Notes: generated from the letters alone by a model not told the origin. 64,000 nucleotides of DNA from Candidatus Magasanikbacteria bacterium RIFOXYD1_FULL_40_23 (GCA_001783215.1 MFRA01000005.1:329423-393422); one strand, 5' to 3'. Positions 14,206 through 16,406 are shown, counted from the stretch's first letter. Numbers and translations are program-made.

Positions 14206-14230
14206 TGAAAATAATGTATAAAAATAAAAA

Positions 14231-14257
14231 AGAGCGATTTTAAATCGTTCTTTTTTG
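14231..14257. terminator. bidirectional intrinsic terminator between convergent HTH and LigT genes
   Basis: hairpin AGAGCGATTT/TAAATCGTTCT with a T-run on the + side (14251-14256) and an A-run on the other side (14221-14231). Confidence 0.45.
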
Positions 14258-14265
14258 TGTTTAAT

Positions 14266-14303
14266 GCGGAGAGGGAGGGATTCGGCTTCGATTAAAATTT
14301 TGT
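14266..14303 (-). repeat. tRNA-Ser 3'-end-like fragment (att-like direct repeat, copy 2) just after the LigT stop
   Basis: minus-strand reading AATCGAAGCCGAATCCCTCCCTCTCCGC matches the 3' 15-17 nt of the tRNA at 15242-15326. Confidence 0.6.
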
Positions 14304-14858
14304 CTAGTTAGTTCCAAATTTTATATCCATTACTTTATGCCACGATTTAGCCCCATCATTTTTCTGATAAATTCGAATCGAATTAACTTCAAACGCAGGT
14401 AAATTTTTCAGTTCTCGCCTTGCTTTTTCCACCATCTCTAGCGTATCTTCTTTGGTGAGGCCCCACTTTATAGCTCCTAGAGTCAGGTGTGGATGGTATT
14501 CATTATTTTCAAAATATTTTTTTGCTGGATCTTTGTAGTATGGCCCAACTGCACTAAATAAGGTTTTATGAAGATTGATAAGTTCTTGAGAAAAAGCCGG
14601 TTTAAGGAAAATGACATTTTCGTCAAAATTTCCTACTCCTTCAAAAGAGATTTGAAATTTACTAAAACCATTTATTGCTGATTCTATTTTAGGTAGCCAC
14701 AACTTATCTTCTGTTAGTCCTCCCGTGGATTTCACTGTGATATGTGGCTCGACAAGATTAGGTACGTCATTATTAAGGAAGTTTCTTTGGAAAGAAATAA
14801 TTTTTTCACTTATTGTTTCTGGTGGTGTGATTCCTATAAAAAATTGCATAAGTTCCAA
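14304..14858 (-). CDS. 2H phosphoesterase superfamily protein (LigT/ThpR-like RNA 2',3'-cyclic phosphodiesterase)
   Basis: two H-x-T-x motifs (HITV, HLTL) with the appropriate spacing; 184 aa. Confidence 0.6.
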   Translation of the reverse strand: MELMQFFIGITPPETISEKIISFQRNFLNNDVPNLVEPHITVKSTGGLTEDKLWLPKIESAINGFSKFQISFEGVGNFDENVIFLKPAFSQELINLHKTLFSAVGPYYKDPAKKYFENNEYHPHLTLGAIKWGLTKEDTLEMVEKARRELKNLPAFEVNSIRIYQKNDGAKSWHKVMDIKFGTN

Positions 14859-14862
14859 TTTT

Positions 14863-14901
14863 GGCGGAGAGGGAGGGGTTCGGCTTCGACTAAAATTTTT
14901 T
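14863..14901 (-). repeat. tRNA-Ser 3'-end-like fragment (att-like direct repeat, copy 1) just after the GIY-YIG #1 stop
   Basis: minus-strand reading TAGTCGAAGCCGAACCCCTCCCTCTCCGCC, compared with the tRNA 3' end GGTTCGAATCCCTCCCTCTCCGCC. Confidence 0.6.
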
Positions 14902-15132
14902 ATCCAAATGTTTTTTTAAAAAAGCTCTGCCAGAACCAGATTTTAAATATTTTTCAAATTCAAATGCTGTGTATTTATCTTTGAATGCGAAGTAGGCTGT
15001 AAGTTCAACTGGTAAGCGCTTAGCTGTGGCTGGTACTTGGCCTTTTTGATGTCTAGCCATACGTTCTTTTAAATCGGATGTACAGCCAGAATAAAAACCG
15101 TCTTTGCATTTTAATATATAAACATAGTGCAT
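14890..15132 (-). CDS. small GIY-YIG nuclease-family protein (YhbQ/UPF0213-like), copy 1
   Basis: HYVYILKCKDGFYSGCTSDLKERMARHQ contains the GIY-YIG motifs and aligns with E. coli YhbQ; 80 aa. Confidence 0.7.
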   Translation of the reverse strand: MHYVYILKCKDGFYSGCTSDLKERMARHQKGQVPATAKRLPVELTAYFAFKDKYTAFEFEKYLKSGSGRAFLKKHLDKKF

Positions 15133-15241
15133 AAGCGGATTTTATCACGCCGAAGCTTCATCTTTGATAATTCGCATGAACCAAGTATTATGAAAAACTT
15201 AGAACTCGCCTCTGCCCTAAAGGGCTACGGCGAAGCGAAGG

Positions 15242-15326
15242 CGGAGAGGGAGGGATTCGAACCCTCGGTGCCTTGCGGCACACAGCTTTAGCAAAGCTGC
15301 ACAATCGACCACTCTGACACCTCTCC
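15242..15326 (-). tRNA. tRNA-Ser (anticodon GCU by hand fold), type II with long variable arm
   Basis: 7-bp acceptor GGAGAGG/CCTCTCC; anticodon stem CAGCT/AGCTG with loop TTGCTAA; variable arm GTGCC-GCAA-GGCAC; T-arm GAGGG-TTCGAAT-CCCTC; CC but no A encoded. Confidence 0.7.
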
Positions 15327-15362
15327 AGGTGTTGTCGTTTTATAATAAATCTTTTTAATTTT

Positions 15363-15764
15363 TTATTCGTATTGGCTCAGCATTTCTTCTAGTTCACGGG
15401 CCTCCCTCGCTTCTTTTTCTGCTTCAGTTTCGGTGGGTGTTTCAGTTAGCATTTTATTTTTAACTTCTGCAAAGAGTGCATCTACCTCTGTTTCAAGTAT
15501 CACGCCGCCTTGTTTGGCAATACTGCGCACACTATCTAGGCCGTAACCGTCTCTAATTCTTTTTTCCAAATGACCAAGGGCGAATGTCTTTACCTCTGTT
15601 TCCGGCGCGCCTAATTTTAAAAGCTCTCGAACTAAATCACCGCCATGTTCGGTATTTTTGCATGCCTGAGCATATTCTGGTCTTTGGGTAATATTTTTTT
15701 GTTCTGCGGTTTCTGTCGGATTCATTAGTTCCGCTTCTGTTGGGCCAGGTCCTTGCTCGGGCAT
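15363..15764 (-). CDS. hypothetical acidic protein
   Basis: 133-aa ORF with Glu-rich termini and no recognisable motif; sits between the two tRNA/GIY-YIG units. Confidence 0.35.
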   Translation of the reverse strand: MPEQGPGPTEAELMNPTETAEQKNITQRPEYAQACKNTEHGGDLVRELLKLGAPETEVKTFALGHLEKRIRDGYGLDSVRSIAKQGGVILETEVDALFAEVKNKMLTETPTETEAEKEAREARELEEMLSQYE

Positions 15765-15831
15765 ATTGGTATGAACAGTTGTTTAAACTAATTTGAAGTA
15801 TAGCACTGGTGGGTGAGCGGTGACAATTTGT

Positions 15832-15856
15832 CTGGAGAGATATGATTCGGCTTCGA
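15832..15856 (-). repeat. degenerate tRNA 3'-end-like fragment (att-like, copy 3), matching the 3' end of the second tRNA
   Basis: minus-strand reading TCGAAGCCGAATCATATCTCTCCAG, compared with the tRNA at 16209-16295 3' end TCGAATCTCTATCTCTCCGCC. Confidence 0.5.
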
Positions 15857-16099
15857 CTAAAATTTTTTATCCAAATGTTTTTTTAAAAAAGCTCTACCAG
15901 AACCAGATTTTAAATATTTTTCAAATTCAAATGCAACGTATTTATCTTTGAATGCGAAATAGGCTGTAAGTTCTAGTGGTCGGCGATTGATTGTGGCGGG
16001 AACCTGGCCTTTCTGATGTCTTGATATGCGTTCTTTTAGGTCTGAGGTGCAACCAGAATAAAAACCGTCTTTGCATTTTAATATATAAACATAGTGCAT
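15857..16099 (-). CDS. small GIY-YIG nuclease-family protein (YhbQ-like), copy 2
   Basis: 80 aa, identical to copy 1 at both ends but diverged in the centre (ERISRHQKGQVPATINRRPLEL vs ERMARHQKGQVPATAKRLPVEL). Confidence 0.7.
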   Translation of the reverse strand: MHYVYILKCKDGFYSGCTSDLKERISRHQKGQVPATINRRPLELTAYFAFKDKYVAFEFEKYLKSGSGRAFLKKHLDKKF

Positions 16100-16208
16100 A
16101 AGCGGATTTTATCACGCCGAAGCTTCATCTTTGATAATTCGCATGAACCAAGTATTATGAAAAACTTAGAACTCGCCTCTGCCCTAAAGGGCTACGGCGA
16201 AGCGAAGG

Positions 16209-16295
16209 CGGAGAGATAGAGATTCGAACTCTAGAGGCCCTTTCGAGCCCGGCAGTTTAGTAAACTGCTGCCTTAAACCACTCGGCCATCTCTCC
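16209..16295 (-). tRNA. type II tRNA (Ser-like); anticodon reads ACU in my hand fold, which is atypical
   Basis: acceptor GGAGAGA/TCTCTCC; D-arm GCC-GAGTGGTTTAA-GGC; anticodon stem GCAGT/ACTGC with loop TTACTAA; long variable arm; T-arm TAGAG-TTCGAAT-CTCTA. Confidence 0.6.
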
Positions 16296-16406
16296 TGATT
16301 ATGGAATTTTTGTAGCGATAGTGTATCAAAAAACCAGATAAAGTCAACCCTAAAGTTGCTGTAATTTTGCCCGGTTTTATTATATAATATCTTCTCTAGC
16401 AAACGT

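Follow-up and report, generated by a model that had tools for sequence, protein, structure and literature searches.

Organization of the tRNA-Ser locus

The locus described here lies in Candidatus Magasanikbacteria bacterium RIFOXYD1_FULL_40_23 (GCA_001783215.1, MFRA01000005.1:329423-393422), a member of the Patescibacteria in which each of two tRNA-Ser genes is followed by a structured leader and a gene for a small GIY-YIG protein of the UPF0213/YhbQ type, an arrangement referred to below as the GIY-YIG cassette. The stretch analysed (the window) is 64,000 nucleotides long and matches a 394-kb ENA groundwater contig, and all positions are counted from its first letter (Table 1). ARAGORN calls only two tRNA genes in the whole 64-kb window, tRNA-Ser(GCT) and tRNA-Ser(ACT), both on the minus strand, and Infernal agrees. 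An earlier description from the DNA alone (the sequence-only reading) had reported two minus-strand type II tRNA-Ser genes, each followed by a hairpin and an 80-aa GIY-YIG gene, and ARAGORN, Infernal and Pfam bear this out. The two tRNA/leader/GIY-YIG units form a direct repeat of 387 nt with 92% identity (14879-15265 and 15846-16232), which has a mosaic make-up: identity is complete across the leader and the initial 56 nt of the open reading frame (ORF), drops in the middle of the ORF and is complete again at its 3' end.

A shorter repeat is superimposed on these units. This 36-nt block consists of an arm, AAAATTTTA(G/A)TCGAAGC, followed by CGAA(T/C) and the remainder of the cognate tRNA 3' end, and it is present three times: at 14266-14301, at 14864-14899 (94% identical to the first) and at 15831-15866 (69% to the first). 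On one strand, there are exactly three occurrences of TCGAAGCCGAA, where 0.87 would be expected with one mismatch allowed, and three of CCCTCCCTCTCCGCC within two mismatches, where 0.01 would be expected. Three tRNA 3'-end copies joined to a common arm, one of them behind a LigT-like 2H phosphoesterase gene, were thus recovered as previously proposed, with two corrections: the copies are not 15-17 but 18-20 nt long, beginning inside the T-loop at CGAA(T/C) (position C56), and the arm, in contrast to what had been stated, does not lie wholly behind the stop codons. The blocks come after both GIY-YIG genes and after the LigT gene, and all three ORFs terminate inside the common arm, that of LigT with a TAG within CTAGAC. 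The tRNA copy behind GIY-YIG gene 2 (copy 3) has diverged, with a single base deleted and a mutated end. The assignment of the phosphoesterase holds by its match to PF13563; its score against TIGR02258 is under the cut-off.

As the sequence-only reading had noted, no integrase is encoded inside the units, whose sole genes are those for GIY-YIG and LigT; the neighbouring genes lack an integrase domain, too. A consensus scan of the minus strand gave no promoter-like site between either window tRNA and its GIY-YIG gene, so that the latter is probably expressed by read-through from the tRNA promoter. Inverted repeat I4 closes the minus-strand unit and a converging HTH gene; it is absent from the terminator-scan listing.

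Table 1. Features of the tRNA-Ser locus, in the order in which the minus strand is read
Feature	Position	Strand	Evidence or remark
Promoter-like site TTGACT-16-TACACT with TG, 5' of tRNA-Ser(ACT)	16320-16347	minus	consensus match only
tRNA-Ser(ACT), type II with long variable arm, end ...CTCTCCGCC	16207-16295	minus	ARAGORN; Infernal 16209-16295
Leader of cassette 2, 107 nt	16100-16206	minus	sequence; identical to cassette 1 leader
GIY-YIG gene 2, 80 aa, UPF0213/YhbQ type	15857-16099	minus	Pfam PF01541 E 2.7e-12
Arm copy 3 (AAAATTTTAGTCGAAGC), holds stop codon of GIY-YIG gene 2	15850-15866	minus	homologous to 3' hairpin in L183, L205, L172
tRNA 3'-end copy 3 (CGAATCATATCTCTCCAG), diverged, C56 to 3' end of tRNA-Ser(ACT)	15832-15849	minus	sequence
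Promoter-like site TTGTCA-18-TATACT with TG, 5' of ORF133	15797-15826	minus	consensus scan, 10/12 matches
ORF133, 133 aa, between the two units	15363-15764	minus	no family match; orthologue in syntenic L197
tRNA-Ser(GCT), end ...CTCTCCGCC	15240-15326	minus	ARAGORN and Rfam; Infernal 15242-15326
Leader of cassette 1, 107 nt	15133-15239	minus	identical to cassette 2 leader
GIY-YIG gene 1, 80 aa, UPF0213/YhbQ type	14890-15132	minus	Pfam GIY-YIG E 6e-12
Arm copy 1 (AAAATTTTAGTCGAAGC)	14883-14899	minus	sequence repeat
tRNA 3'-end copy 1 (CGAACCCCTCCCTCTCCGCC)	14863-14882	minus	19/20 bases as tRNA-Ser(GCT) C56 to 3' end
LigT-like 2H phosphoesterase, 181 aa from ATG	14304-14849	minus	Pfam PF13563 E 2.7e-18
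Arm copy 2 (CTAGACAAAATTTTAATCGAAGC), collapsed full arm hairpin	14285-14307	minus	sequence; cf. GGCTAGACAAAATTTTCGAAAGAAAATTTTAGTCGAAGCC in L205, L183, L172
tRNA 3'-end copy 2 (CGAATCCCTCCCTCTCCGC), then A and terminator	14266-14284	minus	19/19 bases as tRNA-Ser(GCT) C56-C74
Terminator-type inverted repeat I4, T runs on both sides	14219-14263		strand unassigned; 22-nt arms, 86% complementary

The GIY-YIG protein and its leader

Both window proteins match PF01541 well above its cut-off of 22.6 bits (46.1 and 47.2 bits), with profile positions 1-73 of 78 covered. The closest solved structures both belong to UPF0213, namely 1ZG2 (BH0048; E 1.8e-9) and 1YWL (EF2693; E 5.9e-5), with no further matches in the PDB. 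The motifs HYVYIL, FYSG and KER..H align with 1ZG2 and the Glu was assigned by reading FEFEKY, all of this being alignment-based rather than taken from a structure. Among the copies examined the ORFs are 71-89 aa long, and the Pfam domain spans residues 1-68 of 80. Copies 1 and 2 of the window share 91% amino-acid identity (dN/dS 0.11), and both end in ...KKHLDKKF where the relatives in L017 and L020 end in ...KKHLT, the three extra residues being read from the arm. Models of PADLOC and PHROGs gave no match for the GIY-YIG protein, LigT or ORF133, and no NCBIfam family was found for any of the three. To our knowledge, the small UPF0213/YhbQ-type GIY-YIG proteins, although very common, have no known function; none has been assigned to 1ZG2 or 1YWL, and we know of no description of a tRNA linkage. 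Nothing in the searchable literature ties genes of this type to tRNA-Ser genes.

The 107-nt leader opens with TTCG directly after the tRNA (TTCGCTTCGCCGTAGCCCTTTAGGGCAGAGGCGAG) and closes with GGCGTGATAAAATCCGCTT. It contains the hairpin CTTCGCC..GCCCTTTAGGGC..GGCGAG and, two bases ahead of the ATG, a terminal hairpin, GGCGTGAT-AAA-ATCCGC, a motif found just twice in the window. The GCCC/GGGC hairpin noticed earlier makes up just one portion of this larger structured leader. The short-form leaders of related loci (alignment A1) fold as one extended hairpin with three helices and a symmetric, purine-rich internal loop. This fold is supported by covariation: 97% of the alignment cells pair, compared to 23-45% in slid controls, and 46 cells are changed on both sides, compared to 14.8 in shuffles. 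A fold into three separate hairpins was considered as well, but is less well supported (91% of cells paired). In Rfam 15, the leader matches no family; searches of the window region and of eight cassette loci returned tRNA and antisense-tRNA only. The innermost hairpin, GGCG(T)GAY-NNN-RTCCGC (window 15135-15151 and 16102-16118; leaders of L017-L096), follows the tRNA in front of it: its 3' strand copies the last bases of the upstream tRNA, with TCCGC behind tRNA-Ser and tRNA-Asp (51/52) and CCCGC behind tRNA-Trp. In its anatomy, the GIY-YIG cassette consists of a structured leader placed after ...CCGCC and a 77-80-aa gene of the UPF0213/YhbQ type.

Distribution of the cassette in related genomes

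Relatives of the GIY-YIG protein number more than 2,300 at ~70-90% identity and are named from many Patescibacteria lineages. From a scan of one genome per species, 80 related loci were taken, in which tRNAs were called by ARAGORN. A tRNA gene on the same strand lies just upstream in 67 of these 80 loci, mostly 68-140 nt off and at most 344 nt, and most of the loci without one are cut by a contig end. The upstream tRNAs comprise 58 for Ser (with all five anticodons), 6 for Trp, 2 for Asp and 1 for Glu; all 67 end in C-G-C-C, and the spacer starts with TTCG.

Where one genome has cassettes at several tRNA-Ser genes, these are mutual nearest relatives, and the GIY-YIG sequences cluster only weakly by anticodon (the anticodon is the same for 21 of 69 nearest neighbours vs 13 expected). 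L032 and L043, for example, encode proteins with 97% identity and are 100% identical over ~175 nt of the ORF, while their leaders are different. Purifying selection is strong (dN/dS 0.03-0.30 among copies) and synonymous sites are saturated between lineages; it is thus constraint, and no recent spread, that accounts for the high protein identity.

Presence of the cassette at a given tRNA gene varies among relatives, which had been put forward as something to look for and was indeed found. In L017 and L020 (~86% nucleotide identity), tRNA-Ser(GCT), leader and GIY-YIG gene are followed by an exonuclease III gene, without arm, fragment or LigT, and behind the tRNA-Ser(ACT) of L017 there are two leaders and no GIY-YIG gene. 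L197 is syntenic with the window (76-94% nucleotide identity across the ABC-F gene, both tRNAs, ORF133 and further genes beyond them) and has neither leader nor GIY-YIG gene behind either tRNA-Ser. At the same two tRNAs, the window thus holds two cassettes, L017 one (plus solo leaders) and L197 none. Accordingly, the earlier idea of a cassette family directed at tRNA-Ser genes is retained insofar as a compact, multi-copy cassette is linked to tRNAs at 67/80 loci and differs in presence between relatives; the part that is not supported is the use of the tRNA fragments as scars of its integration. LigT had been counted as cargo of this family, but LigT and ORF133 have no homologue at any of the 80 related loci, which rules out both as recurrent cargo.

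In five cassettes without a nearby tRNA, CCGCC precedes the leader in 5/5, and three of them (L030, L045, L046) retain 12-17 nt from the 3' end of a tRNA. One is found outside the Patescibacteria: the 3.28-Mb Dehalococcoidia chromosome OZ252215.1 (L030, 3930-4228) contains a complete cassette with 76% protein identity and no adjoining tRNA, preceded by the 16-nt tRNA-Ser 3' piece AATCCCTCCCTCCGCC, which suggests horizontal transfer together with the tRNA stub, unless the assembly is chimeric. Leader modules also occur without a GIY-YIG gene, solo or in tandem (L088 1-336, with a period of ~67 nt; L063 3500-3660; L070 3760-3900; L065 1-207; L017 56-286).

tRNA-like tail elements and the origin of the window blocks

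A scan of metagenome contigs with a 17-base arm pattern returned 118 matches, most of them due to chance and about six informative. The informative matches include elements behind tRNA-Lys (L183 1515-1713; L205 3405-3595) and behind tRNA-Asn (L172 121-290), at loci that carry no GIY-YIG gene. The order there is a terminator, a conserved ~110-nt element with the full arm hairpin (GGCTAGACAAAATTTT...AAAATTTTAGTCGAAGCC) at its end, the tRNA 3'-end copy and a second terminator. The tRNA copy covers C56-C74; it is exact (19/19) behind both tRNA-Lys genes and diverged behind tRNA-Asn. These tail elements, ~110-150 nt in size, share a core (..CGGAGCGAT-hairpin-CGCGAG..) and an A/T-rich arm hairpin; homologous cores are present in L025, L027, L055, L060, L080 and L089, and the family is also found behind tRNA-Ser genes. 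Arm copy 3 of the window corresponds to the 3' half of the arm hairpin. L197, in turn, has the orthologous arm and fragment behind its tRNA-Ser(ACT), without GIY-YIG gene or leader.

Intact tail elements fold into a tRNA-like Y, with an acceptor-like stem, a 9-bp hairpin and a T-like stem around two hairpins (folding z -4.1 to -8.4). The fragment pairs with an upstream complement that varies according to the tRNA, and this joint change of fragment and complement indicates a selected structure rather than a scar. Rfam 15 contains no tail-element family (L060 and L205 were searched; tRNA and antisense-tRNA matches only), and a reading of the core as a ribozyme or box C/D-like RNA was dropped, as no model matched.

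Copies of tRNA 3' ends are enriched near cassettes. A cognate copy lies within 200 nt after the GIY-YIG stop in 12 of 62 loci, compared to 0.9% of control windows (p = 3e-13), and within 900 nt one is found for 17 of 71 GIY-linked tRNAs, compared to 2 of 42 other tRNAs (p = 0.006). Nine of these 17 copies start at -19 or -20 (often C56), and several end at about C74. Two orders occur, tRNA-cassette-fragment and tRNA-insert (130-190 nt)-fragment-cassette, and the inserted material is homologous across both (L025 vs L060 and L055).

The three window fragments do not have the tail-element fold (z about +0.6; range +0.5 to +0.7), and the 5' halves ahead of them are coding sequence. Since the GIY-YIG and LigT ORFs terminate inside the arm, these genes have overwritten the 5' parts of tail elements. 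The sequence-only reading had taken the fragments as a signature of integration, but the same arm, joined to a copy of the tRNA end, is found behind tRNA-Lys, tRNA-Asn and the tRNA-Ser(ACT) of L197 without a GIY-YIG gene. As tail elements exist independently of the GIY-YIG cassette, comparison across these loci shows the window blocks to be 3' stumps of a separate tail-element family, not demonstrated scars of cassette insertion. It is well supported that the window combines two GIY-YIG tail cassettes with three tail-element stumps and two lineage-specific ORFs (LigT and ORF133). The tail-element family, which carries ~19 nt copied from the tRNA 3' end, may prove more unusual than the cassette.

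A serine-recombinase element at the same tRNA

The tRNA-Ser(GCT) end and the start of the leader are, in addition, the attB, i.e., the landing site, of a separate serine-recombinase element, of which the window holds the empty site. Some contigs of other strains follow the window to 15240, the last base of tRNA-Ser(GCT), and then enter a gene for a 537-aa large serine recombinase (L012-L015); others leave an element carrying an amidase (lysin-like) gene and rejoin the window at 15247 (L004, L005, L009). Precomputed Pfam families assign Resolvase, Recombinase and zinc-ribbon domains to the 537-aa product. The junctions have just CCGCC in common; reconstruction of the attP gives an imperfect inverted repeat, GGGTTCTAACTTCGGGACATCGTCA-CCGCC-AGATGTCCAAGTTAGAACC. 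This element was considered as the source of the tRNA fragments and rejected: there is no relationship between its arms and the common arm, and only CCGCC is shared with the site. In two related loci (L020 1-30; L031 ~150-198), cassettes are preceded by ...AAAAAACA-CCGCC in place of a tRNA, which looks like the right junction of a further element integrated at the same CCGCC core.

Other strain contigs differ from the window in the number or pairing of units. In a one-unit variant (L002, L006), the tRNA-Ser(ACT) unit is joined straight to GIY-YIG copy 1 and LigT, with ORF133 and tRNA-Ser(GCT) left out, and chimeric contigs (L010, L106) swap partner within the identical leader; both could result either from recombination across the 387-nt repeat or from assembly collapse.

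The tRNA-Ser(ACT), which scores 54.5 bits against the Rfam tRNA model, has orthologues in L017 (1-55) and L197 (1112-1199), and its anticodon recurs in L029 and L056. With an A at position 34 it neighbours an ordinary tRNA-Ser(GCT), and it is kept in several related genomes; A34 is unusual among bacterial tRNAs, tRNA-Arg(ACG) excepted.

A selfish cassette or a host gene?

The explanation that we consider best, and to which we would give an even chance, is that Patescibacteria carry two kinds of tail element on the 3' side of tRNA genes, instead of an array of integrase-type mini-islands, and that the GIY-YIG cassette is a selfish element spreading by homing or gene conversion. Mobility of this kind is suggested by the many copies per genome, the patchiness among relatives, the identical tracts, the solo copies with a tRNA stub, and the solo and tandem leaders as decay products. 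The cassette would be expressed through read-through from the tRNA promoter, and its GIY-YIG nuclease would break tRNA-like 3' ends that lack a cassette. Repair of the break might then copy the cassette in, with the conserved ...YCCGCC end serving as left homology. In the window, GIY-YIG cassettes and LigT have replaced the 5' parts of tail elements, and with homology provided by the common tRNA end to the left and by the common arm to the right, a whole unit would then have been copied or converted between both tRNA-Ser loci. Copies within one genome would presumably go on exchanging sequence.

Several observations weigh against this explanation. The GIY-YIG ORFs contain no DNA-binding or target-recognition module beside the catalytic domain, in contrast to the characterised homing endonucleases, which are known to carry a DNA-binding domain. 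We infer the cleavage activity, the target and the donor-recipient pair alike. All 82 GIY-YIG ORFs examined are intact, although the 80 related loci are best protein matches, so that decayed copies would be missed. Saturated synonymous divergence together with 70-90% protein identity would fit an old useful gene equally well as a persistent selfish one. Look-ups of the exact proteins (GIY-YIG, LigT, ORF133) revealed no allele without the units: every contig with LigT or ORF133 carries the same ones. The account does not cover the origin of the 19-nt copies in tail elements, and the first insertion behind each window tRNA, whatever its cargo, could still have created the fragment.

Among the alternatives, a non-mobile host gene has the most in its favour, even though we regard it as rather unlikely. 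Here, the GIY-YIG gene would be an old gene co-transcribed with tRNA-Ser, the leader a cis-regulatory or processing RNA, the protein might act on tRNA precursors or tail elements, ordinary duplication, along with gene conversion, would account for the several copies, and the fragments would be neighbours without any relation to the gene. The strong purifying selection on every copy, with saturated synonymous sites, agrees with such a gene, as do the RNA-type traits of the leader (covarying helices and a symmetric purine-rich internal loop), the inner hairpin that mimics the tRNA 3' end and varies with the tRNA, and a tRNA association that spans many Patescibacteria lineages. In the window, moreover, the cassette is followed by LigT, an enzyme of the RNA-end-healing type; however, LigT is unlinked to the GIY-YIG gene elsewhere. 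A housekeeping role could be filled without a copy of its own for every tRNA-Ser gene, and it sits poorly with two, one or no copies at the same two tRNAs of close relatives. It would equally not predict solo copies with a tRNA stub away from tRNAs, one of them in a chromosome outside the Patescibacteria, or the solo and tandem leaders that resemble decay products.

GIY-YIG cassette and tail elements could also be parts of one system, undescribed so far, that moves without an integrase at tRNA 3' ends of Patescibacteria: nuclease and leader would be the autonomous form, the tail elements its non-coding members, and each insertion would duplicate ~19 nt (C56-C74) of the tRNA that was hit, for instance if it were nicked within the T-loop and at its 3' end. 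If true, this would explain how one arm family comes to lie next to perfectly cognate copies of tRNA-Lys, tRNA-Asn, tRNA-Trp and several tRNA-Ser, but we consider it improbable.

Classical site-specific integration appears slightly more doubtful still. It would require mini-elements that recombined with the tRNA from T-loop to 3' end, restored the tRNA and displaced its original end, with an integrase acting in trans, as for cis-mobilisable elements. The units are indeed flanked by direct repeats of the tRNA 3' part, from the T-loop start to about C74, which is the geometry of islands in tRNA genes (tDNA islands; PMC4383910), described by Williams (2002) insofar as that work is cited in PMC4383910 and PMC9897764. 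The enrichment of tRNA 3'-end copies at cassette loci points in the same direction, and so does the finding that the fragments end in CCGC and then A, as in cassette-less tRNA-Ser, whereas cassette-bearing tRNAs end in CCGCC and then TTCG. However, no integrase is found in or beside any unit, and the sole recombinase at tRNA-Ser(GCT) is of the large serine type, with junctions that share only CCGCC and arms unrelated to the common arm. The common arm adjoins perfectly cognate copies of tRNAs as different as those for Lys, Asn and Ser (several), a pattern that an element with a fixed attP core could not produce, and in intact tail elements the fragment pairs with a complement that co-varies with it. 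Empty-site alleles, which the sequence-only reading had recommended to look for, were found neither among strain contigs nor, as the exact pattern of tRNA-Ser(GCT) joined directly to the terminator (0 matches), in metagenome contigs.

A functional role of the window blocks as tRNA-like punctuation, at which RNase P, RNase Z or the CCA enzyme would release the GIY-YIG and LigT messages, is very unlikely: intact relatives do have acceptor-like and T-like stems with very low free energy between tRNA and terminator, but the window copies lack the 5' strands for such stems and fold no better than shuffled sequence (z +0.5 to +0.7), and copy 3 has a one-base deletion and a mutated end.

Implications and relation to known systems

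The GIY-YIG cassette would belong to a known kind of element, i.e., a free-standing selfish nuclease gene beside a conserved gene; its link to tRNA-Ser is absent from the searchable literature, and leader and tail element are absent from Rfam. The widespread association with tRNA-Ser 3' ends, combined with a leader that copies the tRNA, provides a concrete idea of a substrate for UPF0213 proteins, with whose representatives 1ZG2 and 1YWL the cassette protein shares fold family and size. The tails of tRNA genes in reduced genomes emerge as a crowded niche that accommodates nuclease cassettes, tRNA-like non-coding elements and a serine-recombinase element using the tRNA-cassette junction. For annotation, this means that tRNA fragments in such genomes should not automatically be taken as scars of integrated islands.

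Phage T4 encodes SegB, a free-standing GIY-YIG homing endonuclease of ~220 aa with a DNA-binding part, in its tRNA gene cluster. Like the cassette gene, segB is a GIY-YIG gene amid tRNA genes, and SegB promotes its own inheritance through breaks near them; it is, however, phage-borne, and its gene lacks both the fusion to a tRNA 3' end and a structured leader of the cassette kind. SegB is treated in PMC13096335. Integron cassette arrays differ from the window units in having an integron integrase with attI and in their attC-type imperfect palindromes, the place of which is taken here by copies of tRNA ends. The arm-plus-fragment blocks, for their part, have no sequence relation to the larger serine-recombinase element.

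Islands and prophages with tyrosine integrases in tRNA genes are exemplified by those of Islander (PMC4383910) and by phage Ms6, whose attP core lies in the T-loop of a tRNA-Ala (PMC1762012). The window shares with them the intact tRNA, the insert and the direct repeat of the tRNA 3' part from the T-loop, as well as successive units at one tRNA. Unlike these islands, its units measure only 0.15-0.6 kb and lack an integrase, one arm family is combined with many cognate tRNA copies, and in intact tail elements the fragment is part of a selected fold.

A further parallel is found in fungal mitochondria, where free-standing mobile endonuclease ORFs bring along a substitute 3' end for their host gene and leave the native end downstream (Allomyces atp6; Glomus atp6, atp9, cox2, and nad3; PMC3630166). 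The differences are that the host is a tRNA and not a protein gene, that the nuclease is a bare 77-80-aa UPF0213 domain, that the copies found downstream in the window are part of another element, which occurs separately, and that homing is here read from sequence. In both cases, a conserved host gene has a small endonuclease gene at its 3' end (of the GIY-YIG type in Glomus atp9) and is co-transcribed with it, or, for the cassette, probably so, a second host-gene 3' end lies downstream, and content varies between close relatives; solo cassettes, likewise, retain a piece of the tRNA 3' end.

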